This document shows, in pieces, positions 1,639-64,000 of a stretch of DNA of 64,000 nucleotides. The position numbers and the translations under genes were made by a program. Location: the sequence record OZ035742.1; one strand, written 5' to 3'. Numbering within the stretch: the first letter of the stretch is position 1; each line of letters begins with the position of its first letter. The stretch comes from Felixounavirus AN17P8. The notes below the pieces were generated by a model. It saw nothing but the letters and a program-made list of their open reading frames with translations. It was not told the origin of the DNA and did no database searches.

Positions 1639-3114
1639 GTGAGAAGAATGGCAGATATTACAGAAACACAAGAAAGCTTACCACCATTTAGAATGGGTGA
1701 AGTAGGTTCTTTGGGTCTGAAGGTTAAGAATGGAAGAATCTATGAAGAACCTCGTCAGGCACTAAGGTTCCCTGAAAGTATTAAAACTTTCCAATTAATG
1801 ATGCGTGACCCTGCTGTAGCAGCATCTGTAAATATTATTAAGATGTTTGTCAGAAAAGTCAACTGGAGATTCGTACCTCCAAAGGGAAAAGAGCAAGACT
1901 CTAAAATGCTTGAAAGAGCAGACTTCTTTAATTCTTTAATGGATGACATGGAGCATGATTGGGCAGATTTTATTAATTCTGTAATGTCATTCTGCACTTA
2001 TGGGTTCTGTGTTAACGAGAAAGTTTATAAGAAGCGTCAGGGTAAGAAAGGGAAGTACCAATCAAAATTCGATGATGGTTTAATCGGATGGGCTAAATTG
2101 CCAATCAGAAACCAGTCAACGCTTGATAAGTGGTACTTTGACGAAGACTTTAGAAAAGTTACTGGTGTTAGACAGAATCTGAGAAATGTTTCACATATTG
2201 CTGGAGCAATTAATCTTGGAGAAAGACCACTGACAAGAAAACTTCCACGAGCTAAATTCATGCTGTTTAAGTATGATGATGAATATGGAAACCCAGAAGG
2301 TCGTTCACCATTACTTAATGCCTATGTACCGTGGAAGTATAAAGTTCAGATTGAAGAGTATGAAGCTGTTGGTGTTTCAAGAGACTTGGTTGGTATGCCA
2401 AAAATTGGTTTACCACCAGATTATCTGGATGAAAATGCAGAACCTGAAAAGAAAGCTTTCGTACAATATTGCAAAACTGTTGTTAATGATATGATTGCAA
2501 ATGACAGAGCAGGTTTAATCTGGCCTAGATATATCGACCCAGATACTAAAGAGGATATTTTTGAGTTCTCATTAGTTTCTAGACAGGGTGCTAAAGCATA
2601 CGATACAGGTTCTATTATTGACAGATATTCCAAGCAGATTATGATGGCATTTATGTCAGATGTTCTTGCTATGGGTCAGTCAAAATATGGTTCATTCTCT
2701 CTTGCAGATTCTAAGACAAGCTTACTAGCGATGTCGGTAGATATTCTGCTGAAGCAAATTAAGAACGTAATTAACCGTGATTTAGTTGCACAGACTTATG
2801 CTCTTAATATGTGGGATGATGAAGAACATGTACAAATCACATATGATGATATCGAAACTCCAGACCTTGAAGCAATTGGTTCTTATATTCAGAAGACTGT
2901 TGCAGTAGGTGCTTTGGAAGTTGACAAAGAGCTATCTAACAAGCTTAGAGAGCATATTGGTCTTCCTCCTGCTGATGAGTCTCAGCCAGTATCTGAAAAG
3001 CTTTCTCCAAATAGCCAAAGCCGCTCAGGAGATGGTTATAAGACCGCTGGAGAAGGTACTGCAAAGACACCTTCAGCAAAAGACCCAAGCACAGCAAATA
3101 AGGCAAATAAATAA
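1639..3114 (+). CDS. portal protein
   Basis: 491 aa ORF immediately downstream of terminase and upstream of protease/capsid genes; synteny and size typical of portal. Confidence 0.6.
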   Translation: MRRMADITETQESLPPFRMGEVGSLGLKVKNGRIYEEPRQALRFPESIKTFQLMMRDPAVAASVNIIKMFVRKVNWRFVPPKGKEQDSKMLERADFFNSLMDDMEHDWADFINSVMSFCTYGFCVNEKVYKKRQGKKGKYQSKFDDGLIGWAKLPIRNQSTLDKWYFDEDFRKVTGVRQNLRNVSHIAGAINLGERPLTRKLPRAKFMLFKYDDEYGNPEGRSPLLNAYVPWKYKVQIEEYEAVGVSRDLVGMPKIGLPPDYLDENAEPEKKAFVQYCKTVVNDMIANDRAGLIWPRYIDPDTKEDIFEFSLVSRQGAKAYDTGSIIDRYSKQIMMAFMSDVLAMGQSKYGSFSLADSKTSLLAMSVDILLKQIKNVINRDLVAQTYALNMWDDEEHVQITYDDIETPDLEAIGSYIQKTVAVGALEVDKELSNKLREHIGLPPADESQPVSEKLSPNSQSRSGDGYKTAGEGTAKTPSAKDPSTANKANK

Positions 3115-3614
3115 TGGCTGAAGTTATCTCTATTTCAAATGCTACACGAGTGCATTCGTATAGAGGTGTTCTTATCGTTACTGACAAATTATCTGCAGAG
3201 GCTGGCTCAAGGGTCAGCCTTTCAGGTTATGTAAGTGATGGTGGAACCTCTGACGTTTTCACTATTTGCAGGTTACTTGATGCACCAATGAGTGGAAAAC
3301 CGTTTATTTTAGGAAATTGTAGTGAAATTGTTAAAATTCCATTTGACAGTTCATGCCTTTTGGGTGTAAAGTTATATAACTGCGAGAATAAACGTATCAA
3401 TGTTAATAGCATTGAAGCCGCTTTCATTACCCTCGACACTGCATTTCAATCTCCAATGACAGTTAATAAAGAAACAAACAGACTTGAGTACATTTTTTCA
3501 CAAAATGATTACAAAGTACTTGTCAAAGGTAAAGTATATGATATGATTGTAAATGTGGTAGATGAATCTGGTAACCATTCAACAGTCCTTAAACAAAAAG
3601 TAAGGTTTAATTAA
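3114..3614 (+). CDS. hypothetical head-module protein
   Basis: 166 aa ORF, start overlaps portal stop (ATGA-type coupling); no recognisable motif. Confidence 0.4.
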   Translation: MAEVISISNATRVHSYRGVLIVTDKLSAEAGSRVSLSGYVSDGGTSDVFTICRLLDAPMSGKPFILGNCSEIVKIPFDSSCLLGVKLYNCENKRINVNSIEAAFITLDTAFQSPMTVNKETNRLEYIFSQNDYKVLVKGKVYDMIVNVVDESGNHSTVLKQKVRFN

Positions 3615-3946
3615 TGGGAACATTAACTATTGATGGTAAGAATAAAATCCTCGCCACGCTAACCCCAACGACTATTATTTTACACAATGTAGACCCAACG
3701 GCAGACCCTACAGCAAATAAGGTTACTCAGCCAGTGGCTATTTATTTTTCTGAACCGGATAATGGCTTAATTGCCTCAGAAGATACAGTTAATATTACTG
3801 TTCCAGCTTCTGCAACGGTCTCACACTATAGCTTGTGGGATGCTAACGATAAATGCGTGGCAACTGGTGCTCTTAGCAAACCTCAATTCTTTGCTGAAGA
3901 AGGTATCTATGTTATCTCTTCAGTCTCTGTAGATTTAAACAAATAG
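3614..3946 (+). CDS. hypothetical head-module protein
   Basis: 110 aa ORF translationally coupled to upstream ORF. Confidence 0.4.
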   Translation: MGTLTIDGKNKILATLTPTTIILHNVDPTADPTANKVTQPVAIYFSEPDNGLIASEDTVNITVPASATVSHYSLWDANDKCVATGALSKPQFFAEEGIYVISSVSVDLNK

Positions 3947-3957
3947 GGTGAGTAAAA

Positions 3958-5304
3958 ATGAGTTCGAATATCTTCAGACTTGCTGATAGATTATTCAACC
4001 AACCTTTACTAGCCACTGAATCATTAGCTCACTCAGCAGCAACTTATGTGAATAACAGATTGCTGGGTGATGTCCAAGCAGCAGTAAACTTTGATAAACC
4101 CAAAGGTGAAGCAAGAAGTCTTTTAAAAGTAAAAGATGACATTGCTATTATCCCTATTATGGGCGGTTTAACCCATCGTATGACATTCATTGATGCAATG
4201 TGTACAGGTGGTTTAAGCTCTTATGAAGGTTTGCGTAGAGGCTTTGACGAAGCTTTAGCAGATGAGTCGATTAAGACTATTGTTCTGCACATCGATTCTG
4301 GTGGTGGTGAAGCTTCAGGTTGCTTTGAATTAGCACGTCACATTATGGCTTCAAGAGGCCAAAAGAAAATTATTGCTTATGTAGATGAGTTCGCTTGTTC
4401 CGCTGCATACGCTCTTGCATCTTCTGCTGAAGAAATTATTGCATCACCAGATGCAGATGTTGGTTCTATTGGTGTAATTATGGTTCATCAGGAATTAACT
4501 AAAGCATTTGAAAAGAATGGCGTGACAATTAACGTCATCAAAGCTGGTGAGTTTAAAGGTATGGGTTCACCATTCCAAGCACTTTCAGAAGAAAGCAAAG
4601 AAAGACTTCAAAAGAGAATTAATGATACCTACGCAACCTTTACAGGTTTTGTAGCCGAATCTCGTAATCTCTCTGAAGAAGCTGTAAAGAATACTGAGGC
4701 GAATGTTTATTCTGCTCAGGAAGCTCTTGAACTTGGTTTAATTAACTCAATCATGTCTCAAGATGATTTCTTAAATTACTTACAAGGTTCTGAAGAGGCT
4801 CCTGTAAGTTTAAACGTTAACAATTCAGGTGAAGAAATGACTGAACAAGAAAAGCAAGAACTAGAAGCTTTGCGTCTTCAGGTTGCTCAAATGAAAGCTA
4901 AAGAACAGGAAGCTGCTTTGTCAGATTTGACTAATAAGATTTCTGCTTCTGCTGAAGCTTTTGGATTTGATGCAAAAGAAGCTGCAACGACTATTTTAGG
5001 TGCTGGTCTTGATAACCCTCTGAGCGTTCTGTTTATGAATGTTATGGAAGGTGCTAACCAGAAACTTAATGAAACTATCGCGTCCCATGCTTCTGCAATG
5101 GAAGAAAAAGAATCAGAAATCACCAAGCTGAAAGAAACTGCTGGTGCTGTTCTTGAACATTCCAACGCTATGGAAGAAGTGGGTAATGACGGCGAAGCTG
5201 ATTTGGTTGAAGAAGAAAAAGAACCAGCTAAGAATGCTTCCGAAGACACCGCTGAACAACGCAAACTGGCTCTCCAGAATGCTCTAAAATCTCTTATCAA
5301 ATAA
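3958..5304 (+). CDS. prohead protease (S49/ClpP family) fused to scaffold-like C-terminal domain
   Basis: 448 aa; IDSGGGEASG and EFACSAAYALA resemble S49/SppA-type serine protease motifs (lambda gpC-like); C-terminal third is Ala/Glu/Lys-rich coiled coil typical of scaffolding. Confidence 0.65.
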   Translation: MSSNIFRLADRLFNQPLLATESLAHSAATYVNNRLLGDVQAAVNFDKPKGEARSLLKVKDDIAIIPIMGGLTHRMTFIDAMCTGGLSSYEGLRRGFDEALADESIKTIVLHIDSGGGEASGCFELARHIMASRGQKKIIAYVDEFACSAAYALASSAEEIIASPDADVGSIGVIMVHQELTKAFEKNGVTINVIKAGEFKGMGSPFQALSEESKERLQKRINDTYATFTGFVAESRNLSEEAVKNTEANVYSAQEALELGLINSIMSQDDFLNYLQGSEEAPVSLNVNNSGEEMTEQEKQELEALRLQVAQMKAKEQEAALSDLTNKISASAEAFGFDAKEAATTILGAGLDNPLSVLFMNVMEGANQKLNETIASHASAMEEKESEITKLKETAGAVLEHSNAMEEVGNDGEADLVEEEKEPAKNASEDTAEQRKLALQNALKSLIK

Positions 5305-5315
5305 GGAACACAATA

Positions 5316-5693
5316 ATGGCATATCAAGGTTTTACTAAGTTAGGTAAAAGAGAACCTCTGAATGATATCATTCTTTGGGAACAGGTTACCCCAACAGGCC
5401 ACTCTCGTAAAGAGTACACTCCACAGGCATCTACAGAATATCGTGTAGGTGAAGTTCTGAAAGCAGATGGTACTAAGGTACAAGCTGGAGAAGAAGCACA
5501 AGCAGATTCTGTATGTATCGTTAATTTCTACGCAGACCTGCAACTGTCTTATCATGGTCAGTTGAAAGTAGTAGGTATCCACCGTGATGCAGAACTGAAA
5601 GACCTGCTAACTCTTGAATCAAGCGTTGATGCTACTGAAGTCAAGAAAGCTCTGGCTGCTAAAGGTATTGATTTCGTACCAACTGGCCTGTAA
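5316..5693 (+). CDS. head decoration protein (gpD-like)
   Basis: 125 aa ORF between protease and major capsid gene, the position and size of lambda gpD-type decoration proteins. Confidence 0.45.
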   Translation: MAYQGFTKLGKREPLNDIILWEQVTPTGHSRKEYTPQASTEYRVGEVLKADGTKVQAGEEAQADSVCIVNFYADLQLSYHGQLKVVGIHRDAELKDLLTLESSVDATEVKKALAAKGIDFVPTGL

Positions 5694-5726
5694 TAACAAT
5701 AATAAGACATTCTGGAGAATTTTACA

Positions 5727-6833
5727 ATGTTGACTAATTCTGAAAAAAGCAGATTTTTCCTTGCTGACCTGACTGGTGAAGTCCAGTCTATCCCAAATAC
5801 TTATGGGTATATTTCCAACTTAGGTCTGTTCCGTTCAGCACCAATCACCCAAACTACTTTCCTTATGGACTTGACTGATTGGGATGTTAGCTTGCTTGAT
5901 GCGGTAGACCGTGATAGCCGTAAAGCAGAGACTAGCGCACCTGAGCGTGTTCGTCAAATCAGCTTCCCAATGATGTACTTCAAAGAAGTTGAAAGCATTA
6001 CTCCTGATGAGATTCAGGGTGTACGTCAGCCAGGCACTGCAAACGAACTGACTACTGAAGCTGTAGTACGTGCTAAGAAGCTGATGAAGATTCGTACCAA
6101 GTTCGATATTACTCGTGAGTTCCTGTTTATGCAAGCTCTGAAGGGTAAAGTTGTTGACGCTCGTGGTACTCTGTACGCTGACCTGTACAAGCAGTTCGAC
6201 GTTGAGAAGAAGACTGTTTACTTCGACCTTGACAACCCTAATGCTGACATCGACGCTTCTATTGAAGAACTGCGTATGCACATGGAAGACGAAGCTAAGA
6301 CTGGCACTGTAATCAACGGTGAAGAAATTCACGTAGTTGTTGACCGTGTATTCTTCAGCAAACTGGTTAAGCATCCTAAGATTCGTGACGCTTATCTTGC
6401 ACAGCAGACTCCACTGGCTTGGCAACAGATTACTGGTTCTCTGAGAACTGGTGGTACTGACGGCGTTCAGGCTCATATGAACACCTTCTACTACGGTGGT
6501 GTTAAGTTTGTCCAGTACAACGGTAAGTTCAAAGACAAGCGTGGTAAGGTTCACACTCTGGTGAGCATTGATAGTGTAGCAGCAACTGTTGGTGTTGGTC
6601 ATGCCTTCCCTAACGTATCTATGCTGGGCGAAGCTAACAACATCTTCGAAGTGGCATATGGCCCATGTCCTAAGATGGGTTATGCAAATACACTTGGTCA
6701 GGAACTGTACGTATTCGAATACGAAAAAGACCGTGACGAAGGTATTGACTTCGAAGCTCACTCTTACATGCTGCCATACTGCACTCGTCCTCAGTTGCTG
6801 GTAGATGTTCGCGCTGACGCTAAAGGTGGCTAA
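5727..6833 (+). CDS. major capsid protein (lambda gpE-like)
   Basis: 368 aa; position after protease and decoration genes; strong RBS; highest codon regularity in module. Confidence 0.6.
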   Translation: MLTNSEKSRFFLADLTGEVQSIPNTYGYISNLGLFRSAPITQTTFLMDLTDWDVSLLDAVDRDSRKAETSAPERVRQISFPMMYFKEVESITPDEIQGVRQPGTANELTTEAVVRAKKLMKIRTKFDITREFLFMQALKGKVVDARGTLYADLYKQFDVEKKTVYFDLDNPNADIDASIEELRMHMEDEAKTGTVINGEEIHVVVDRVFFSKLVKHPKIRDAYLAQQTPLAWQQITGSLRTGGTDGVQAHMNTFYYGGVKFVQYNGKFKDKRGKVHTLVSIDSVAATVGVGHAFPNVSMLGEANNIFEVAYGPCPKMGYANTLGQELYVFEYEKDRDEGIDFEAHSYMLPYCTRPQLLVDVRADAKGG

Positions 6834-6853
6834 TAAACTTAGGAGGGTTATGA

Positions 6854-7303
6854 ATGTGTTATACAGGCGACCCAGCCAATAACCCTCTTGATAGAGTAAG
6901 AATCCTCTGCACAGACACTAATAATGATGAAATTCTTATTGAGCAGTCTGTGCTAGAGTGGTTCTATCTAGAATCTGGAAAGGATGAAAAGAAAGCAGCC
7001 ATCAAAGCTCTTAAATATTTACTCTTTCAAGTAGCCAAGATGGGAGATGAGAAGGTTGGTGGTGTTTATTTACGTAACTCTTCCAGATTCAAATCTCTGA
7101 AAGCTGTTTATGATGACCTTGTTAAAAGCTCTGTTTCAGGACTACCCTATGCAGGTGGTATTAATCAGTGTGATATTGACATGCGTCGTCAGAATCCTTG
7201 CTCTGTCAAGAAATACACAGAATATGGTGATGCTGCCAGATACGAAGGCAGAGATTACTGCAACCGTGTTAATGGCGTATTTATTATCGAGCGAGATGAA
7301 TAA
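6854..7303 (+). CDS. hypothetical head-tail joining protein
   Basis: 149 aa ORF in head-to-tail junction region. Confidence 0.35.
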   Translation: MCYTGDPANNPLDRVRILCTDTNNDEILIEQSVLEWFYLESGKDEKKAAIKALKYLLFQVAKMGDEKVGGVYLRNSSRFKSLKAVYDDLVKSSVSGLPYAGGINQCDIDMRRQNPCSVKKYTEYGDAARYEGRDYCNRVNGVFIIERDE

Positions 7304-11285: not shown

Positions 11286-19304
<8,019 letters not shown>

Positions 19305-22950: not shown

Positions 22951-23145
22951 ATGCCTACAATCCTAGCAATTCTTCTAAAAAATCTAGGTAGCTTCTTCTG
23001 GAAACTCATTTTATCCCTTCTGAGTGAATACATGATTGAGAAAGTGTTCTTTAAGCTTGCAAGATACCTTGCGAGTAAAACAGACACACCTATTGATGAT
23101 GAGTTCGTAGATAACTTAGAAAAAGCTTTTAAGGGGGAGAAATAA
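22951..23145 (+). CDS. small membrane protein (holin/antiholin candidate)
   Basis: 64 aa, single hydrophobic helix, charged C-terminus; RBS gaggtg. Confidence 0.3.
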   Translation: MPTILAILLKNLGSFFWKLILSLLSEYMIEKVFFKLARYLASKTDTPIDDEFVDNLEKAFKGEK

Positions 23146-23517
23146 ATGAAGTGGCTAGAGGAAGCTTTTAAAAATAATATTGGTGCAATTGTTGTTGGTA
23201 TTTTTAGTGTTATTGGGATGTATACCACGATGCAAGTTTCAAGTGGTAAGCAAGAAGTGTCTGTCACAACAAAATTACAGCAGCTAGATAATTATAGTAA
23301 ATCTAATTACTCAGCTATTCGTGATTTGCAGTCTGACATGAGATTGATTCAGCTAGGGATGGAGAACCAGAAAGTTCAGTTAGAGAATGTTAAGGGTGAA
23401 AACGCAAAACTTACCAAAACTCTTGATAAATTCTCTGACAGTGTAAATAATCTGGCTCAATCAGTATCAGCCTTGCAAGCTATTACTGAAAAGAACACAA
23501 AGAATACTGAAAAATAA
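23146..23517 (+). CDS. membrane-anchored coiled-coil protein (holin-like candidate)
   Basis: 123 aa; N-terminal TM helix IGAIVVGIFSVIGMY followed by coiled-coil; sits after tail fibres as holin t does in T4-like genomes. Confidence 0.3.
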   Translation: MKWLEEAFKNNIGAIVVGIFSVIGMYTTMQVSSGKQEVSVTTKLQQLDNYSKSNYSAIRDLQSDMRLIQLGMENQKVQLENVKGENAKLTKTLDKFSDSVNNLAQSVSALQAITEKNTKNTEK

Positions 23518-56771: not shown

Positions 56772-59138
56772 ATGCGCATGGTAAACGACCACGCAGAAGT
56801 GATTAAGAGTTCAACTTCTTTGGAGACATCTCAAGCACAGATTACAATGACACCTGAAATGTTTAGCCTTCTGAGTTCTGGTGTATACACGTTTAAAGAG
56901 CGAGCAGTGATTCGTGAACTGTCATGTAACGCAGTAGATGCTCAGAAAGAAGCTGGAAAAGAAAACATCCCATTCCATGTGCATTTACCTACTCGATTTG
57001 AGCCTTACTTTGAAGTCCGTGACTTTGGAACTGGTTTAACCCACGACAAAGTAATGAGTTTGTATCTGAACTACGGGGCTTCTACGAAGAATGACTCTAA
57101 TGATTACATTGGTGCAATGGGTATCGGCTCAAAATCCCCATTTGCAATTGCTCAGTCATTCACAGTATCTAGCTATGTTGATGGTGTTGTTAATAAGTAC
57201 TCTGTTTACCTTGAGAATGGTATCCCTCAAGTGACTAAGCTTACTACTAACCCAACAAATGAACCTAATGGCTTAGCTGTACGTGTGGCAGTTGCTGACC
57301 ACCGTATTTCAAAGTTCTTTGAAGAGGCTGGTCACGTATATTCATACTTTGCTGTAAAACCAGAAAGTAACATTGTATATGATGACGTGTTAGCAGATAT
57401 GAACGTCATTGCTCGTGAAGAAGGTGTTTATGACGCTATGATTCATAAGCAAAGCTGGCGTTCTAGTGGTAACAGGACAGAGTTTAATGTGGTGATGGGT
57501 AATATTGCCTATCCAGTGAACATGGAAGCATTACTTGGTGATGATTTCTTCAAAGTCTTGCCAGAGTTTTTCCGTAGGAGCGTAGACCTTGTAAACATCT
57601 ACATGCCTATTGGTTCAGTTGCTATAGCAGCTTCTCGTGAAGCATTGCAGATGAATGATACGACAAAAAATGTTATCATTGAGGCAACTAAAAAGATAAC
57701 TGAAGCAATTACAAAGGATGTTATCAAGAAAGTTAATAGTCAACCTACACTCATGGATGCTGCACAGGCTTATGCTGAGTTACGTTTGAACTCACGAGAA
57801 ATGTTTAATGCTGTGTGTCCAAAGCTAGAGTGGGGAGGTGTTAAGCTTGATTCTCTGGAAGAAGAATTGCTAAACATTCGTCGTGGGATTATCTACGCAG
57901 AAGACGGCTCAGTCATTTATGAACGTGACGGTAAAGGCAATATTAAGGTTGATAGGAACGGAAACAACATCCCTAAAGTAGATTATCTTTATAACCCAGT
58001 TGCTTATGTCAAGTTCAACTCTTTAGAGAGTAAGGTTCGTGCAACAGCACTTTCCTACACTCAAGAGGCAAGTATGTTCAATATCTTTGGTGCAATGCGT
58101 AAGAGCCAAATTGAACAGTTTTTGTTCGTGATTAATGACCGCCGCAATAAAAACGGTACTGAGAAGACTGTAGGCCGCAATCAGATTCTGCGTGGTGCAT
58201 GTCGAGACTATGCCAGTGAGTCAAGTCTGTTTCACAGATACAATGGTATTGTGTTTGTATTCTCGACTGAAAAAGAGTTAGATGATTTAATCAATCTACA
58301 CAAACTTGATAAAAGCTTGTTAAAGATTGTGAAAATGTCTGATAAGGAACACCATTACCAGCGCAAAGAAGCTGTAAGAGGTGTTGTAAAACTCTGGAAA
58401 GCAGTTCCAGCAGAATCTGTAGCTTCATACACAGAGGTGTCAGAAGACTTAGACACAATTGAAGAGCCTCAGCTTTACATTAAGGCAGTAGGTGACACAG
58501 TTGATGGCAAATGCTTTTGCTCATCTCCAGAAGATGTAGCTAAGTCAGTTGCTAATGTTATAGGGAAGACAGTCTATGTTTTCCGAAAAGCAAATTGGAA
58601 AAAGATACCAGAAGACTGGATTGAAGTAGATGAGAAGCTCTTGAACGACAGCTTAACTGATGTTCACTGGATTAATCATAACAGGTATATGACACGCATC
58701 TACATGAATGGTGTTCTTGACCTTACAAGCAGTTGGATTATTGCCAGAAACTTTACATTCAATAACAGGAAGATTTCTCGTGGTTATTGCTACTCACGAG
58801 ATACTAGCAAAACTATCTTCCTAGAAGGTAACGAAGAGGCTGTAGAGGCAATTTTCGGTAAAATCCAGTATGTTGCTGCACCGTTTGCATACACTTACAC
58901 TATTAGTGTGTTGAAGACTTTGAAAGAATGTCTTGACAATGATACAAAGCTTTACAAGAAAATTAAGAAAGCTGGCGACCGCATGGTTATTAAGTTGGCA
59001 AACTACCTTTCAAAAAGAAAACAAGAAAACTTCTTGCTTTCCCATTTAGATTGGAATAAAGTGTCACCTATTGAAGTGAGTAAGTTTTTGGGCTTTAATG
59101 TGAAATGTGTTCCAGAAGGTACAACAGTTTACGATTAA
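56772..59138 (+). CDS. rIIA: rIIA-like protein with N-terminal GHKL (HATPase_c) ATPase domain
   Basis: 788 aa; GHKL motifs ELSCNAVDA (N box), VRDFGTGL (G1), GAMGIGSKS (G2); followed by rIIB-like gene. Confidence 0.6.
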   Translation: MRMVNDHAEVIKSSTSLETSQAQITMTPEMFSLLSSGVYTFKERAVIRELSCNAVDAQKEAGKENIPFHVHLPTRFEPYFEVRDFGTGLTHDKVMSLYLNYGASTKNDSNDYIGAMGIGSKSPFAIAQSFTVSSYVDGVVNKYSVYLENGIPQVTKLTTNPTNEPNGLAVRVAVADHRISKFFEEAGHVYSYFAVKPESNIVYDDVLADMNVIAREEGVYDAMIHKQSWRSSGNRTEFNVVMGNIAYPVNMEALLGDDFFKVLPEFFRRSVDLVNIYMPIGSVAIAASREALQMNDTTKNVIIEATKKITEAITKDVIKKVNSQPTLMDAAQAYAELRLNSREMFNAVCPKLEWGGVKLDSLEEELLNIRRGIIYAEDGSVIYERDGKGNIKVDRNGNNIPKVDYLYNPVAYVKFNSLESKVRATALSYTQEASMFNIFGAMRKSQIEQFLFVINDRRNKNGTEKTVGRNQILRGACRDYASESSLFHRYNGIVFVFSTEKELDDLINLHKLDKSLLKIVKMSDKEHHYQRKEAVRGVVKLWKAVPAESVASYTEVSEDLDTIEEPQLYIKAVGDTVDGKCFCSSPEDVAKSVANVIGKTVYVFRKANWKKIPEDWIEVDEKLLNDSLTDVHWINHNRYMTRIYMNGVLDLTSSWIIARNFTFNNRKISRGYCYSRDTSKTIFLEGNEEAVEAIFGKIQYVAAPFAYTYTISVLKTLKECLDNDTKLYKKIKKAGDRMVIKLANYLSKRKQENFLLSHLDWNKVSPIEVSKFLGFNVKCVPEGTTVYD

Positions 59139-59142
59139 GTGC

Positions 59143-59172
59143 TTGACAAGGGGCTTCAAAGCCCCTTAGAAT
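59143..59172 (+). promoter_or_regulatory. sigma70-like promoter (TTGACA-18-TAGAAT) with hairpin in spacer
   Basis: -35 TTGACA 59143-59148, -10 TAGAAT 59167-59172; spacer forms palindrome aaggggct-tcaa-agcccctt; about 45 nt upstream of rIIB-like gene. Confidence 0.5.
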
Positions 59173-59216
59173 AGCCTCACAAAATGAGTTATTAACTAAC
59201 AAGAGAGAGTAATAAG

Positions 59217-60326
59217 ATGACTACTAAAACTAAAGCACAGATTGACGCAGAAATTTACAAACTGGTTAAAGAGGGTAAGCTGACTAAAACAGCTATTGCA
59301 CAGAAATTTAACACCTCAACACGTTCAGTTGGTCGTGCTGTAGAGCGTCATGAAGCAACCTTAAAAGGTAAGAAAAAGGTAGCTTCTAAACCAGCTACGA
59401 AGACTTTGAAGCAAGTTGCTAAATCAGTTAAAAAGAAAGCTGGAAAACCAGTTGAAAATGTTGTTAAAGAGACTGTACAAAAGGCTCCGGTAAATAAACT
59501 ACACGAAGCTATGCAGAATGGTAACCAGATTGAGTATATGATTACTGGCGATTCTATTATCATGACTTTTGGTGCAGATTCTGAAATCGTTGAATCTACC
59601 CATCCGAACTACAAAGAAATCGTAATGGCTGTTGTATCCGGTGAGTATAAGAAAGCTTTCGAACTGATGAACATTCGTAAGTCTATCGAAAACTTCACTC
59701 AGGGTGCTATCACCATCAAAGGTGACAAGTTATTCTATGGTGCTGTTGAGATGCGTTCTACTCTGGTTGACCGTATTCTTCACATGATGAAGACTGGAGA
59801 TAAGGGTTTTGAACGCCTTGTGATGTTCTTCGAAAAACTGATGGAAAACCCATCTAAAGATTCTGTAGAACAACTTTGGGGATTCGTATCTCACCTTGAT
59901 GTTGAAATTGATGAAGAAGGCTACATCATTGGTTGGAAGAAAGTCTCTACTCGTGAAGGCAAGCTGGTTGACTCCCACACCTACAGAGTTCCTAATGATT
60001 TGGGTAACATTGTAGAAATGCCACGTTGGATGGTTGATAATAACCGTAACGTGACTTGCTCTCAAGGTCTTCACGTTGGTGCTTGGGATTACGTTCGTTG
60101 CTTCTCAGGCGACACAATCCTGAAGGTTCGTGTCCATCCACGAGACGTTGTATCCGTACCAACTGATTACAACGATATGAAGATGCGCTCGTCTCGTTAT
60201 GAAGTTGCAGCAATCGTTGATAATCAACGTAAAGTGCTGAAAGCATGGGATGGCAAGACTGAAGCTTTACATGTCATCGTCGGTACTGCTGGAGAACTTA
60301 TCTCCCAACGTAAACGTGAAATCTAA
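59217..60326 (+). CDS. rIIB: rIIB-like protein
   Basis: 369 aa; adjacency to rIIA-like gene; segments RSTLVDRIL, VEMPRWMVDNNRNVTCSQGLHV, VRVHPRDVVSVPTDYNDMKMR resemble T4 rIIB as recalled from memory. Confidence 0.5.
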   Translation: MTTKTKAQIDAEIYKLVKEGKLTKTAIAQKFNTSTRSVGRAVERHEATLKGKKKVASKPATKTLKQVAKSVKKKAGKPVENVVKETVQKAPVNKLHEAMQNGNQIEYMITGDSIIMTFGADSEIVESTHPNYKEIVMAVVSGEYKKAFELMNIRKSIENFTQGAITIKGDKLFYGAVEMRSTLVDRILHMMKTGDKGFERLVMFFEKLMENPSKDSVEQLWGFVSHLDVEIDEEGYIIGWKKVSTREGKLVDSHTYRVPNDLGNIVEMPRWMVDNNRNVTCSQGLHVGAWDYVRCFSGDTILKVRVHPRDVVSVPTDYNDMKMRSSRYEVAAIVDNQRKVLKAWDGKTEALHVIVGTAGELISQRKREI

Positions 60327-60343
60327 TAAGTAATTTCTTAAAA

Positions 60344-60367
60344 GGCTGCTTCGGCGGCCTTTTTTAT
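60344..60367 (+). terminator. rho-independent terminator
   Basis: hairpin ggctgc-ttcg-gcggcc followed by TTTTTT. Confidence 0.6.
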
Positions 60368-60426
60368 TTGTATTTTGTGCAGAGTGCTGTATAATTGTTG
60401 TCACGATAAACTAAACAGGAGAACCA

Positions 60427-60975
60427 ATGAAGAAATTGATTCTAGGTTTGTGCTTAATGTTTACAGCACACTTATCTTATGCAGTTGACTGCCCAGAGCT
60501 ATCAATTAGCCAAAAAGTAAACATGTTAAAAGCTTACCAGTATGGTGAGAATAACATGGGTAAAGGTTGGGGTATCACTCTAGCTGCTATAGCCTTACAA
60601 GAGTCAGAGTTAGGTCTAAAGGTAGAGAATAAAAAGACCCATGACTATGGTATTTTCCAGAATCACTTGAAGACTGTTGTAAAGCGTAACAAAATCAGTC
60701 CTAATGTGGCTAAAAAGAAACTCTTAAAAGACTTTGACTATGCTGCGAAGGAAACGCACAAAGAACTTGAGTTTTGGACAAAGGTACATGGTCAGCCAAA
60801 GTCAAAGAAGACTTTACAAAAAGTTTTAGCGTCATATAATGCTGGGTATTCGTACAGAATCCCTAAAGCTAAGAAATATTCTCAAGATGTTTATAACAAT
60901 ATGAAAGTAATTGCTCAATGTGAATTTGCAACAAACATTTCTAAGGTAAACCATGAAAAAATTAAGAAAGTCTGA
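60427..60975 (+). CDS. lytic transglycosylase-like endolysin with signal peptide
   Basis: 182 aa; signal peptide MKKLILGLCLMFTAHLSYA; SLT-like catalytic region AIALQESELG and SYNAGYSY; perfect TATAAT 30 nt upstream. Confidence 0.55.
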   Translation: MKKLILGLCLMFTAHLSYAVDCPELSISQKVNMLKAYQYGENNMGKGWGITLAAIALQESELGLKVENKKTHDYGIFQNHLKTVVKRNKISPNVAKKKLLKDFDYAAKETHKELEFWTKVHGQPKSKKTLQKVLASYNAGYSYRIPKAKKYSQDVYNNMKVIAQCEFATNISKVNHEKIKKV

Positions 60976-61648
60976 TGTAGTATTGTGCCATGCTTATGAC
61001 TTACATCCTCATGAGTTAGGTCTTGATTCCTGTGTATGGACTCCAGAACAGTGCAGGGATTTTGAAGACACCGCAAGAGAAGTTGTATGTTCACTTGAAG
61101 AGTTCCACACATCAGAACCAATTGTGAACGTTGTGGACAAAGAGACTGGACAATCCATAGGTGTAAGACGTGATAGTTTAGTCATAGTTAATAAAGACCT
61201 TATAGAAAAAGGGAATCTCATCTTAGCAGATATTGATGGTGTTCTTACAAATTTTAATCACGAAGATTGTTCAACGGAATTGACTGATGGTTCATTTTCA
61301 CAGTACACTAATCTTCTTGATTCTGTAAGAGCAAAACCAACGTATGTTTTCAATATCATTGATGCAATTGCTAATCATGCTGCCGTTGGACTCTTGACAG
61401 CGAGAGGTGAATCTCAGAGAATACCCACTGAGATGTTTTTAAGGCATAACACGGAGCATGACTACATGCTTTTTATGCGTGGTTTTGGGACTAACTCTAT
61501 AAGTGCAGAAAGTTTGAAAGTGAGGATGATTCAGTCTTGCATTCTGCCTTACTTTAATATAGTATGTTTTATAGAAGACACAGAGAAGAATGTGCAGAAG
61601 GTGAACAGAATCCTTCCACACATCAAAACCATGTTAGTTAAACATTGA
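60953..61648 (+). CDS. HAD-superfamily hydrolase-like protein (putative nucleotidase/phosphatase)
   Basis: 231 aa; ILADIDGVLTN matches HAD motif I (DxDG); start may be further downstream. Confidence 0.35.
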   Translation: MKKLRKSDVVLCHAYDLHPHELGLDSCVWTPEQCRDFEDTAREVVCSLEEFHTSEPIVNVVDKETGQSIGVRRDSLVIVNKDLIEKGNLILADIDGVLTNFNHEDCSTELTDGSFSQYTNLLDSVRAKPTYVFNIIDAIANHAAVGLLTARGESQRIPTEMFLRHNTEHDYMLFMRGFGTNSISAESLKVRMIQSCILPYFNIVCFIEDTEKNVQKVNRILPHIKTMLVKH

Positions 61649-61658
61649 GAGAAAACTT

Positions 61659-62123
61659 ATGAACAATATCATTACGGTAGCACTGGACGTTACGGCAAAC
61701 AAATCTGAAGTAGTTCGTAACATTATCAAGAGCAACTTTGAGGGTAAAATCTTCCGTGCTGTCAATGTAAAAGCAGACGGTAACATTCGGGAGTATCGTG
61801 CCCTTTTGAATGTTAAGAAACACGTCAAAGGTGCTGGTTCAACGACTGCACACAAAGAAAACCTGATGACCATCTATGATATGGGGATGGCTTCAGAATT
61901 AGGTGCTGAAGGTATCGTTAAAGAAGGTGCTCCGTATCGCTCTTTCAATCTGGAAACTGCTCTCATGCTTTCCTTTACAAGTGGTTCTAAAACAACTACT
62001 TATCTCTTTACTGATGCTGCAACGGTATCTGCTATCAAGGATAGCACTGTCAAAGCTGGGGTAGCTGCTGCTGCAAAAGCTTCTTCGATGGCTGCAAATG
62101 TCCTTGCTAAAGTCCTCGGTTAA
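61659..62123 (+). CDS. hypothetical protein
   Basis: 154 aa ORF, Ala-rich C-terminus; followed by terminator. Confidence 0.35.
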   Translation: MNNIITVALDVTANKSEVVRNIIKSNFEGKIFRAVNVKADGNIREYRALLNVKKHVKGAGSTTAHKENLMTIYDMGMASELGAEGIVKEGAPYRSFNLETALMLSFTSGSKTTTYLFTDAATVSAIKDSTVKAGVAAAAKASSMAANVLAKVLG

Positions 62124-62134
62124 GGTTAAGATAC

Positions 62135-62157
62135 AGGCTCCTTCGGGAGCCTTTTTC
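62135..62157 (+). terminator. rho-independent terminator
   Basis: hairpin ggctcc-ttcg-ggagcc followed by TTTTT. Confidence 0.65.
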
Positions 62158-62175
62158 ATTTCAGGAGATTGTTAA

Positions 62176-62523
62176 ATGACATTTAAAGAGTTCTGTCAAG
62201 CTACTTTCATAATTGTTTTCTTAGTTGGTGCAGGTGTCTGGGGAGGATACTCTTACAGAGACTATCAAGTTGCTGAAACTGAGCTAAACAATCAAAAGCT
62301 CATAAGTGTTGCTAAAGATGCTTATCAGGAAGGATTAGTCACACTGAGCACCAATTACAAGAATGATTTGAAAGATGTGCTTGCTAAGAATAAGCATACA
62401 AAAGAGGTACTAACATATGAAAAAACTAAGCCAGAGTTTTATAATGTTTGTGTTACTGATAACTATGTCAGGGTGTTCAACGAACAAAGTGAACAGTACA
62501 TTCAAAAACTCCCAAGTAAGTGA
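62176..62523 (+). CDS. i-spanin (Rz-like) candidate
   Basis: 115 aa; N-terminal TM helix FIIVFLVGAGVWGG then charged coiled-coil domain; 3' end overlaps lipoprotein ORF in another frame. Confidence 0.4.
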   Translation: MTFKEFCQATFIIVFLVGAGVWGGYSYRDYQVAETELNNQKLISVAKDAYQEGLVTLSTNYKNDLKDVLAKNKHTKEVLTYEKTKPEFYNVCVTDNYVRVFNEQSEQYIQKLPSK

Positions 62524-62686
62524 GAGTGATAAGTACACTCAAGAAGAATCACGGTATATCATCAAAGGTAACACAGGCGGTGATGTAGCAGCAGCCCTTG
62601 AGTTCTATCGTGATGGATTTTACCAGTGTACACTCAAAGCTAATAACCTTATTGACATGATTTTATTAGGGAATAAGCAGCAATGA
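62417..62686 (+). CDS. o-spanin (Rz1-like outer membrane lipoprotein) candidate
   Basis: 89 aa; signal peptide ending in lipobox-like ITMSGC; starts inside the 3' end of the i-spanin candidate in a different frame. Confidence 0.4.
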   Translation: MKKLSQSFIMFVLLITMSGCSTNKVNSTFKNSQVSESDKYTQEESRYIIKGNTGGDVAAALEFYRDGFYQCTLKANNLIDMILLGNKQQ

Positions 62687-62952
62687 CAGAGAATCAAGAT
62701 ACTTTCTATGTAGAGGGCTACTTACTGTTACCACGACCAAAAGAAACTTATATGCGAATTGATTTCTCACCAACCATCATGGATAATGTGATGTGCCATA
62801 TCTTTATGCAAGGTGTCACAGCACAACTTAAGCATGTTGGCAAAGAGTGCAAAATAAAGGTTGACACTCATCCAGAAATCAAAGAAAATCACTACACATG
62901 GTTCTTACCAGACTCTAAAGAAATCTTAGCAGTTCTTAAAACGAGGAAATGA
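62683..62952 (+). CDS. hypothetical protein
   Basis: 89 aa ORF. Confidence 0.3.
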   Translation: MTENQDTFYVEGYLLLPRPKETYMRIDFSPTIMDNVMCHIFMQGVTAQLKHVGKECKIKVDTHPEIKENHYTWFLPDSKEILAVLKTRK

Positions 62953-63263
62953 TTATGCAATTCCAGCCAACAAATCGTGGATTTTCTTATGCAGAATTTA
63001 AAGATGCTAAAGGGGAAATTTGTACTTTACAAGAGAGTTCATCATACGAACCATGTATCTGGTTAGGTGCTAAAGAGGTCTCTGTTCAGTACCTAGACAA
63101 TGGCTGGAAAACACTTGATATCCCAGCATTAGTTGGTAAAGATTTTGTAGGTAATCAAAGAATGAAGCTCAATCAAGAACAGGTAAAAGAGTTGTTGCCG
63201 TACCTCCAATACTTTGCTGAAAATGGTGAATTACCAACAGAGGAACTTACAAATGCAGATTAA
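62949..63263 (+). CDS. hypothetical protein
   Basis: 104 aa ORF. Confidence 0.3.
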   Translation: MIMQFQPTNRGFSYAEFKDAKGEICTLQESSSYEPCIWLGAKEVSVQYLDNGWKTLDIPALVGKDFVGNQRMKLNQEQVKELLPYLQYFAENGELPTEELTNAD

Positions 63264-63579
63264 TGGAAGAGACTTTGTAGCCGTTTACTACGAGAAAGGT
63301 AAAGAGGTTGGTGTAGCACAAGTAACTTATGGCAATGGTAAGTGGCTATATGGAACAATCGCAGTAGTAGGAACAAGAAGTGATACAAAAACTTTTAAAG
63401 ATTGTGTTGACCTTCTTGAAGAATCCATCCAGAATCATTGGTGTCTGATATGGATGACTGATAACGAAGTGATGGAGCGTTTCAAAAAGATTGATATCAA
63501 CATTGACAGTATTGAGCATGTTGATTTATATGAGCTAACTGAGAAGGTAAACTATGAAAGTAATACTAGCCAGAGATAA
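63214..63579 (+). CDS. hypothetical protein
   Basis: 121 aa ORF. Confidence 0.3.
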   Translation: MLKMVNYQQRNLQMQINGRDFVAVYYEKGKEVGVAQVTYGNGKWLYGTIAVVGTRSDTKTFKDCVDLLEESIQNHWCLIWMTDNEVMERFKKIDINIDSIEHVDLYELTEKVNYESNTSQR

Positions 63580-63781
63580 AAAGACACGAAAACTTATCAG
63601 GTCAGCAGTGTTCATTGGACGAAATGAGGTCATCCCATTTACAGCAAATGATGTGATAGCTTACAGGAAGAACTTAGTATTCACTGACTGCTTACGTGGC
63701 TTCATCTCTGAACCATTGGAAGACTTTAAAAGTCGTTGTGGTAAAGGTATCATCATTCAAGAGGCAATTATTCATGGCTGA
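63554..63781 (+). CDS. hypothetical protein
   Basis: 75 aa ORF. Confidence 0.3.
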   Translation: MKVILARDKKTRKLIRSAVFIGRNEVIPFTANDVIAYRKNLVFTDCLRGFISEPLEDFKSRCGKGIIIQEAIIHG

Positions 63782-63974
63782 CTTCTGTAAAGACTGTTCT
63801 ATCGAAATGTTCGGACGTGATACAGGTGACTTAAAAGGTCTTATCACTGAAGAGGACTTTAAATATGGCTATGCAATGCCAGTAATCTGTGAAGGTTGTG
63901 GGTGCATCTGGGTAGACCACGAAGGGCAGCGTGTAAAACCTTCAGAAGATAAAGAATCTTGGGAGAGATGTTAA
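63774..63974 (+). CDS. small zinc-ribbon protein (hypothetical)
   Basis: 66 aa from ATG at 63774 (MADFCKDCS...) with GAGG RBS; CKDC...CEGCGC cysteine pairs; avoids overlap implied by the 63696 start. Confidence 0.3.
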   Translation: MADFCKDCSIEMFGRDTGDLKGLITEEDFKYGYAMPVICEGCGCIWVDHEGQRVKPSEDKESWERC

Positions 63975-64000
63975 ATGGGTATTGTAAAAATCATCAATGG

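Follow-up and report, generated by a model that had tools for sequence, protein, structure and literature searches.

We analyzed a stretch of 64,000 nucleotides (nt) from Felixounavirus AN17P8 (sequence record OZ035742.1), hereafter called the window, with a focus on positions 60427 to 62686, where five open reading frames (ORFs) code for an SLT-type enzyme related to the T4 protein Vs.1, a HAD-family protein, a protein of 154 amino acids (aa) and two spanins. An earlier note on this DNA had regarded these genes as a lysis cassette in which the SLT-type protein is the muralytic enzyme. Our results indicate that the block is very probably not a lysis cassette but a group of genes next to rII, consisting of an accessory Vs.1-like enzyme unit followed by overlapped spanin genes, with the endolysin and the holin encoded elsewhere. 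This is an ordinary and known arrangement, the structural content of which is already in the literature or in databases. The window derives from a virulent myovirus of the Felix O1 type (Felixounavirus): positions 59000-64000 have 97.9% DNA identity to Salmonella phage Felix O1 (coordinates 2154-7155), and more than 200 other Felixounavirus genomes exhibit at least 90% identity to the same segment. The order of genes is also that of Felix O1 ORF1-ORF12, with rIIA (56772-59138) and rIIB (59217-60326) followed by the five ORFs under study. The latter were recovered where the earlier note had placed them, all on the plus strand, with the HAD-family ORF (60953-61648) and the 154-aa ORF (61659-62123) lying between the gene of the SLT-type enzyme and those of the spanins.

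Evidence against a lysis cassette comes from the location of the canonical lysis genes. A contiguous holin-endolysin-spanin cassette of the lambda type is not present at the locus. The canonical lysozyme endolysin of Felix O1, gp35, is encoded at 18691-19155 on the minus strand, that is ~13 kb past the spanin genes and on the opposite strand, and no homolog of gp35 or of T4 E was found in the 64-kb window; the endolysin gene lies outside it. A cd00737 lysin that is 99% identical to that of Felix O1 has been expressed and purified (PMC9156722), 'holin-lysin cassettes' have been described as absent from Felix O1, with gp79, 116, 118, 119 and 131 as the holin candidates (PMC3185647), and the lysis genes of Felix O1-like phages have been described as scattered around the genome (Moogle announcement, PMC4319497). 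Next to the block we found no ORF with a membrane segment fit for a holin, so the remark that a holin is not adjacent holds true. The proposal of a lysis cassette with the SLT protein as its muralytic enzyme is not supported, given this separate endolysin and the two unrelated genes and terminator that intervene between the SLT gene and the spanins.

The block is also framed by transcription signals. A consensus terminator scan placed two terminators, t2 and t5, on either side of the trio of SLT, HAD and 154-aa genes, and both have been published for Felix O1 (PMC3185647 Table 2). Terminator t2, located 3' of rIIB on the plus strand (60340-60363), is a 10-bp hairpin with a UUCG loop and a T-run (RNAfold -14.7 kcal/mol) that is kept with compensatory changes in Suspvirus and Mooglevirus. 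Terminator t5 (62135-62152, plus strand, with a T-run to 62157; RNAfold -14.0 kcal/mol) abuts the ribosome-binding site (RBS) of the i-spanin gene and is kept in all Ounavirinae examined, with Erwinia phage Rouille having a different, fully compensated hairpin directly before its i-spanin gene. Just downstream of t2 is a sigma-70-like promoter candidate for the SLT-HAD-154aa unit (60368-60395, plus strand) that has a perfect -10 element (TATAAT, 60390-60395) and a weak -35 element. Owing to the latter, a simple consensus scan did not list this candidate, which was read directly from the sequence. The pattern TGTGCAG-N5-TGTATAAT is kept in seven phages that represent at least three genera, with TTGAAA-N16-TATAAT at this site in SUSP1 and Moogle. 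When TGTGCAG-N5-TGTATAAT was sought as a recurring phage promoter motif, only the one site was obtained, other matches being at chance level, and the T4-type late promoter TATAAATA had a single match in the 64 kb, away from the locus and fewer than expected by chance. Good Shine-Dalgarno sequences are present 5' of the SLT, i-spanin and o-spanin starts. In the interval between t5 and the i-spanin gene (62153-62175), the Shine-Dalgarno sequence begins ~8 nt past the T-run of t5, which leaves no room for a promoter and suggests that spanin expression probably depends on read-through of t5. Other phages also have 23 bases here, with the exception of Escherichia phage pEC-M719-6WT.1 (locus 2160-2501), which has ~290 extra bases between t5 and the i-spanin gene that could carry a promoter or small ORFs.

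The first protein of the block (60427-60975, plus strand, 182 aa) is a Vs.1-family lytic-transglycosylase-like protein, as indicated by its homology to T4 Vs.1, its SLT motifs and its predicted GH23 fold. Specifically, BLASTP aligned it end to end with T4 Vs.1, which has 181 aa, at 32% identity in 174 columns (E=2e-16), a tblastn search of the whole window with T4 Vs.1 matched this ORF alone (E=2e-13), and the GenBank note on Felix O1 ORF3 likewise points to T4 vs.1. Homologs were detected by tblastn in 2,127 phage records that include T4-like, Vi1-like, Aeromonas, Vibrio and Acinetobacter phages. In the family alignment E59, G63, Q78, Y137, N138, G140 and Y151 are invariant and S60, G75 and S136 are nearly so, which includes the motifs G75-I-F-Q78 and S136-Y-N-A-G140. 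The Pfam SLT profile (PF01464) is matched at E<=0.01 by 20 of 22 homologs, the best at 8.2e-12; the PHROG label for the family is 'unknown', and an NCBIfam scan of all five proteins of the block returned only noise. An AlphaFold2 model of the protein has a pLDDT of 84.8, with a core above 90 and residues 1-18 disordered, and the top 33 Foldseek matches to this model in the PDB are all GH23 enzymes (g-type lysozymes, MltE, Slt70, MltF, MltD and phiKZ gp144) with probabilities of 0.8-1.0. A search of solved structures by sequence found nothing for this protein. Because of the invariant motifs, the match of 20 of 22 homologs to PF01464 and the confident model that matches GH23 only, the 60427 product is very probably a lytic transglycosylase with Glu59-Ser60 as the predicted catalytic residues. 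Our search of the literature for a function of Vs.1 returned only a remark from 2006 that reported a marginal SLT match for T4 vs.1 and suggested 'some role in cell lysis' (PMC1524935).

The naming of these proteins in public records is uneven. The SLT protein is labelled 'putative lysin' in some records, and 'RegB endoribonuclease' or 'endoribonuclease' is given as the name of Vs.1/SLT homologs in Salmonella phage Marshall (Marshall_110, locus 2902-3519) and in four other records. The homologs labelled RegB are SLT-like and not RegB, and the label probably goes back to 'protein in vs-regB intergenic region', the name formerly used in T4.

The N-terminus of the Vs.1-like protein, MKKLILGLCLMFTAHLSYA followed by VDC, is consistent with a signal peptide of residues 1-19 (60427-60483, a rule-based call) that has two Lys, a Leu-rich hydrophobic core of ~13 residues (L4-L16) with one Gly and one Ala, and after this core S17-Y18-A19 as a site that fits the -3/-1 rule, a pattern that is kept across the Vs.1 family. 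This core, the Ser and Ala at -3 and -1 and the disordered N-terminus of the model bear out the earlier description of an SLT-type product with a cleavable-looking signal peptide. The same description had allowed for a signal-arrest-release (SAR) endolysin, which is unlikely. SAR domains are longer and rich in Gly and Ala, whereas this core is short and Leu-rich with a cleavage site after it, and there is no adjacent pinholin; as judged from the sequence, Sec export with cleavage is much more likely than a SAR anchor. A lipoprotein reading of the signal (L-G-L-C9) was rejected, given that Leu at -1 is disallowed in a lipobox and that Cys9 is too near the N-terminus. Cys22 and Cys165 co-occur, with both being present in Ounavirinae-type members and neither in T4-type members, and a periplasmic disulfide between them is probable. 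We thus infer the export, the cleavage site, the disulfide and the enzymatic activity of the Felix O1-type Vs.1-like protein from such features.

These features have to be weighed against the possibility that the SLT protein is itself the phage endolysin, of the Sec or SAR type, and forms with the spanins a compact cassette that is holin-less or uses a pinholin. In favor of this, the enzyme is of a muralytic type and bears an export signal at its N-terminus, its gene is 1.2 kb upstream of the spanin genes on the same strand, and the 'putative lysin' label agrees with such a role. In addition, published reverse-transcription PCR (RT-PCR) of Felix O1 put ORF3 (SLT), ORF4, ORF6 (i-spanin) and ORF35 (endolysin) in one 25-min class, with ORF2 and ORF5 in a 10-min class. 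We nevertheless consider it quite improbable that the SLT protein is the endolysin, as the canonical lysozyme endolysin of Felix O1-type phages is encoded elsewhere, the SLT gene and the spanin genes are parted by two unrelated genes and by a conserved terminator, the short Leu-rich core with its signal peptidase I site is unlike a SAR domain with no pinholin alongside, and linkage of Vs.1 to spanins is absent from the T4-like and Vi1-like phages examined. T4 itself also argues against this role. Its vs.1 gene is far from its spanin genes, and T4 e mutants fail to lyse even though this phage has both Vs.1 and the cytoplasmic E. T4 thus still needs gene e, and a Vs.1-type enzyme is no substitute for an endolysin there.

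We also compared the surroundings of Vs.1 genes among phages. Phages of Felixounavirus, Suspvirus and Mooglevirus have the order rIIB-SLT-HAD-154aa-spanins, and in Kolesnikvirus other genes are present between the HAD gene and the spanins. Outside the Ounavirinae, Vs.1-spanin linkage was not found in the T4-like phages, Vi1-like phages and Aeromonas phage Asswx_1 that were examined. For example, T4 vs.1 is located between regB and vs, ~73 kb from the pseT.3/pseT.2 spanin genes, the Vs.1 homolog of the Vi1-like phage Marshall is located among hypothetical genes, and that of Asswx_1 is between alc and pseT with next ORFs that are not spanins. This distribution bears on a second explanation, in which the Vs.1-like enzyme is an auxiliary lysis factor that acts independently of a holin to pre-weaken or locally open the peptidoglycan. 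Such an enzyme could make final lysis faster or allow spanin complexes to pass through the wall, with the position of its gene reflecting co-expression by read-through. The predicted export of a GH23-type enzyme would suit this role, the missing promoter space between t5 and the i-spanin gene makes read-through from the SLT unit plausible, and the gene order is kept in three genera. This linkage is lost outside the Ounavirinae and is interrupted in Kolesnikvirus, and for T4 vs.1, whose phenotype is not known, only the marginal SLT match is on record (PMC1524935). We therefore regard an auxiliary lysis role as rather unlikely, even if the placement of the Vs.1 gene upstream of promoter-less spanin genes in the Ounavirinae could reflect functional coupling rather than accident.

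A third explanation is that the Vs.1-like enzyme has a periplasmic role in early or mid infection that is unrelated to lysis, such as altering the wall to keep out superinfecting phages or countering a host envelope response; in where and when it acts it would then resemble Spackle, RI and other periplasmic proteins of T4. Its Sec signal and sigma-70-like promoter candidate are congruent with this, as is the position of the block, which adjoins rIIA/rIIB and further homologs of T4 early genes (a Tk.4-like macro-domain phosphatase gene and the PseT-like gene). The family is also kept in T4-like, Vi1-like and Felix O1-like phages, with rII genes confirmed only for the Felix O1-like group. This support is entirely indirect, a literature search found nothing that backs it, and the intact catalytic site speaks for action on peptidoglycan but is silent on its purpose, so that we hold a non-lysis role to be unlikely. 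Finally, the SLT protein might be a virion-associated enzyme that pierces the wall for DNA injection, as do T7 gp16 or PRD1 P7. SLT-domain virion proteins are common in phages, and phiKZ gp144 is among the structural matches. This explanation is extremely improbable, as the protein is small and of a single domain, has a cleavable Sec signal and is encoded far from the structural module. Felix O1 gp3 is also not among the virion proteins detected by mass spectrometry (PMC3185647), which argues against an injection role.

Several points weigh against our favored reading of the block as an accessory enzyme unit followed by overlapped spanin genes. The window protein scores 19.2 bits on Pfam SLT (E=9e-4), below the gathering cut-off of 21.3 bits, and the Foldseek matches have modest E-values (~1e-2, with TM-scores of 0.45-0.57; 0.37-0.57 over the top 33). 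The signal-peptide and lipobox calls are rule-based heuristics and not predictor output. Read-through from the SLT unit may couple the spanin genes weakly to the SLT gene at the level of transcription, and the shared 25-min class makes the published timing too coarse to part the SLT gene from the lysis genes. The accessory remodelling role that we assign to the Vs.1 family is also a best guess.

In regards to the spanins, the upstream gene (62176-62523, plus strand) codes for an i-spanin of 115 aa that matches phrog_1152 'Rz-like spanin' (E=1e-41) and has an N-terminal transmembrane segment at about residues 9-25. Its hydropathy maximum, 1.75 over 19 residues, is at residues 6-24 (FCQATFIIVFLVGAGVWGG), and there is no second segment. 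The downstream gene (62417-62686, plus strand), which has the RBS GAGG 8 nt 5' of its start, codes for an o-spanin of 89 aa with matches to phrog_4180 (E=9e-50) and phrog_456 'Rz-like spanin' (E=8e-5). Its N-terminus is MKKLSQSFIMFVLLITMSG followed by C20-S21, giving the lipobox ITMSG-C with Ser and no Asp at +2 by a rule-based call, and the lipobox is kept in SUSP1, Rouille, SU10, Moogle, M719 and KMM4. The o-spanin gene, read in the +1 frame with respect to the i-spanin gene, overlaps the latter by 107 nt (62417-62523). Comparison of six Ounavirinae loci gave a mean pairwise difference at third codon positions of 0.31 in the part that is i-spanin only (i frame) and of 0.38 in the part that is o-spanin only (o frame), which falls inside the overlap to 0.09 for third positions of the i frame and 0.11 for those of the o frame. 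This fall in third-position diversity indicates that both frames are under selection and that the overlapping ORF is not a chance ORF, which confirms the earlier proposal of two spanin candidates that overlap in different frames.

Relatives provide further evidence for the pair. A lipoprotein ORF that is in the +1 frame and shares the C-terminal motif is present in phages of Suspvirus, Kolesnikvirus and Kuravirus. Even where identity of the i-spanin drops to 27-33%, as in Erwinia phage Rouille and in SU10, a podovirus, a +1-frame ORF with a lipobox (TAS-C in Rouille and MSA-C in SU10) again overlaps the end of the i-spanin gene, and the o-spanins of these two phages and of the window phage have in common the C-terminal motif LE[FYW][YW][RQ]D..[YF]..C...N.L. 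Each subunit has a single periplasmic Cys, C92 in the i-spanin and C71 in the o-spanin, and both are kept in distant relatives. Given that a periplasmic Cys for homotypic disulfides was reported for 507 of 528 spanin systems (PMC6139136), homotypic disulfides at C92 and at C71 are likely from the sequence. Many GenBank records annotate these proteins as i-spanin and o-spanin, and Felix01, FO1a and UAB_phi87 are listed among 'overlapped' two-component spanins (Kongari et al. 2018, SpaninDB, PMC6139136). The spanin pair is thus genuine and already catalogued.

In several related records spanin genes are unannotated, shortened or apparently broken. The o-spanin gene is without annotation in Erwinia phage Rouille (OQ818707; locus coordinates 2712-2987), and in SU10 (NC_027395; locus ~2679-2939) and phage dune (MN850636; locus 4419-4688) the annotated o-spanin start is 3' of the lipoprotein signal, a start so late that the signal peptide is lost from the annotated protein. 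The true starts are MKRLFNLFF...TAS-C in Rouille, MRKLNQFF...MSA-C in SU10 and MKKLSQSF...MSG-C in dune. In Citrobacter phage BSwM KMM4 (OP902293; locus ~2477-2540) the i-spanin gene has a stop and a shifted frame at its 5' end, next to an intact o-spanin gene; this defect is either a sequencing error or a natural disruption.

The two genes between the enzyme and the spanins have no apparent tie to lysis in our favored reading. The first (60953-61648, plus strand) codes for a 231-aa protein resembling Pnkp-type HAD phosphatases, as evidenced by PHROG, Pfam and PDB-profile matches and by DIDGV at residue 93. The four HAD motifs (D93-I-D-G-V, T149, K189 and E208-D209) are invariant in 8 homologs, with LTARGES, K189 and IEDT as conserved stretches, and together with the Pnkp-type matches they substantiate the earlier call of a HAD-like protein. 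All PseT/Pnkp-type matches are weak, with E-values from 3.5e-6 (the phrog_415 profile) to 0.012. The protein matches phrog_3970, phrog_415 and phrog_505, all labelled 'polynucleotide kinase', with the phrog_505 alignment spanning profile positions 159-282 of 295. Residues 84-231 scanned alone gave Pfam HAD_PNKP (PF25109) at E=0.012 with 16.2 bits, below the gathering threshold of 27.6. The family profile had Pnkp1 4xrp as its top PDB match (E=0.0097), and hhalign aligned the protein to T4 PseT residues 151-289 (E=6.8e-4). BLASTP against T4 PseT gave no significant similarity, and a search of solved structures with the single sequence found nothing. A Walker A motif (GxxxxGK[ST]), which T4 PseT has as GCPGSGKS, was sought in the protein and not found. 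The 231-aa protein is therefore a Pnkp-type phosphatase domain without a kinase domain, and because only the phosphatase domain is present the label 'polynucleotide kinase' is an over-annotation. Residues 1-85 (60953-61207) matched nothing; they have an invariant H13-A14-Y15 and several Cys and His that are mostly not conserved, and could form a small metal-binding or substrate-recognition domain.

The second of these genes (61659-62123, plus strand) codes for the 154-aa protein, which occurs only in Felix O1-like phages (the Ounavirinae and their close relatives) and has no membrane segment. It is the most conserved protein of the block, with 86-92% identity across Felixounavirus, Suspvirus and Mooglevirus as compared to ~75% for its neighbors. 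Its predicted fold is a small beta-barrel of the Sm/SH3 (WYL-like) type to which a long C-terminal helix is joined, and a search of solved structures by sequence returned only noise.

A putative holin is encoded in the window far from the block, at 23146-23517 on the plus strand. Its 123-aa product, the homolog of Felix O1 gp79, has 91% identity to CPT_Moogle54 (E=6e-84), belongs to phrog_4038 (unknown function) and has an N-terminal transmembrane segment followed by a long helical tail, with the gene being at the end of the tail-fibre module. Beside it is a second small membrane-protein gene (22951-23145, 64 aa, phrog_402). In the published RT-PCR the maximum of gp79 was at 5 min, an unusual time for a holin. 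Separately, we observed two records named 'Campylobacter phage' that carry Felixounavirus-type sequence, one of which, Campylobacter phage A132 (MG065664, 70.7 kb), has 98% identity at the protein level. This suggests that these records are mislabelled or contaminated.

Taken together, we propose that the block works as two units. The first, comprising the SLT, HAD and 154-aa genes, would be bracketed by the two conserved terminators and transcribed from the conserved sigma-70-like -10 element upstream. Its Vs.1-like product would be exported by Sec, cut by signal peptidase I after Ala19 and stabilized by the Cys22-Cys165 disulfide, and would act in the periplasm as a GH23 lytic transglycosylase via Glu59. 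Its role would be that of an accessory, holin-independent peptidoglycan remodeller and not that of the executor of lysis. The HAD phosphatase most likely heals 3' ends of nucleic acids or dephosphorylates nucleotides, functions that would be unrelated to lysis, and the 154-aa product would be a very conserved cytoplasmic small beta-barrel protein. The second unit, directly 3' of the second terminator, would supply the overlapped two-component spanin. Its i-spanin would be held in the inner membrane by the N-terminal segment, and the o-spanin would receive its lipid at Cys20 and, having Ser at +2, would go to the outer membrane. Both proteins would bind each other via their periplasmic C-terminal parts and fuse both membranes after wall removal. 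The latter would be carried out by a cytoplasmic lysozyme of the Felix O1 gp35 type, encoded ~13 kb away and outside the window, that is released by a holin encoded elsewhere, for which the 23146-23517 product is the candidate within the window.

The gain for annotation is mainly corrective. Neither 'putative lysin' nor 'RegB endoribonuclease' is a sound label for Vs.1 homologs, each being unsupported or wrong, and o-spanin genes are still missed or wrongly started in several records. More broadly, the sequences point to the Vs.1 family as an exported and apparently active wall-cleaving enzyme in thousands of virulent myoviruses that have a separate endolysin, and the data allow an accessory or a non-lysis periplasmic role for such transglycosylases. 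We suggest, as a tentative idea that more probably fails than not, that the family (>2,000 phage genomes) comprises conserved lytic transglycosylases that are exported by Sec, need no holin and serve a dedicated function in the periplasm. If true, this function could be the opening of the wall for spanin assembly or the alteration of peptidoglycan to exclude superinfecting phages. Defining the role of Vs.1 would add to the understanding of how large lytic phages manage the host envelope, a question that the window makes no more tractable.

Comparison with known systems places each part of the block. T4 Vs.1, described as the product of a hypothetical 20.7-kDa protein gene in the vs-regB region, shares with the window protein an N-terminal signal peptide and the motifs E-S, G-x-F-Q and S-Y-N-x-G, but does not have the Cys22/Cys165 pair. 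With family 1 lytic transglycosylases and GH23 (Slt70, MltE, MltD and goose-type lysozymes) the window protein has in common the predicted fold and the catalytic Glu-Ser, from which it differs in being a minimal single domain of ~163 mature residues that is soluble rather than lipid-anchored. In the case of T4 PseT and bacterial Pnkp1 (4xrp), the C-terminal 148 aa of the window HAD protein align with the DxDGT/V, T/S-x-R, K and [DE]D motifs, whereas the P-loop kinase domain is absent and an unrelated N-terminal region of 85 aa is present.

The spanins of T4, PseT.3 and PseT.2, have a similar size (117 and 99 aa, against 115 and 89 aa in the window) and, like the window pair, are unlinked to holin and endolysin and encoded beside a pseT-type gene. 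The T4 spanin genes are separated and upstream of pseT, whereas those of the window are overlapped and downstream of the pseT-like gene, and BLASTP of the window spanins and HAD protein against PseT.3, PseT.2 and PseT detected no significant similarity, only a resemblance of lipoprotein signals and weak motif-level matches. Spanin genes are within two genes of a pseT-type phosphatase gene both in T4 (pseT to pseT.3) and, in reversed order, in Felix O1-type phages; this proximity may be fortuitous or left over from a common ancestor of the block.

The lambda Rz/Rz1 pair resembles the window pair in combining a type II inner-membrane protein with an outer-membrane lipoprotein encoded in the +1 frame. 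There are several important differences, in that lambda Rz1 is wholly embedded in Rz within a holin-endolysin-spanin cassette, whereas the window o-spanin gene extends 163 nt beyond the i-spanin stop and the pair has no adjacent holin or endolysin. Also, the mature window o-spanin has no proline, in contrast to the proline-rich Rz1 of lambda. The earlier comparison to the 'classic Rz/Rz1 economy' is thus correct as to the overlap of frames, but the architecture is of the 'overlapped' type and not embedded as in lambda. Finally, the closest known system is the ORF6/ORF7 pair of Felix O1, where the i-spanin is identical to that of the window, the o-spanin differs at 2 of 89 residues, and the 107-nt overlap, the lipobox and the one periplasmic Cys per subunit are the same, so that there is no difference of substance between the two pairs.

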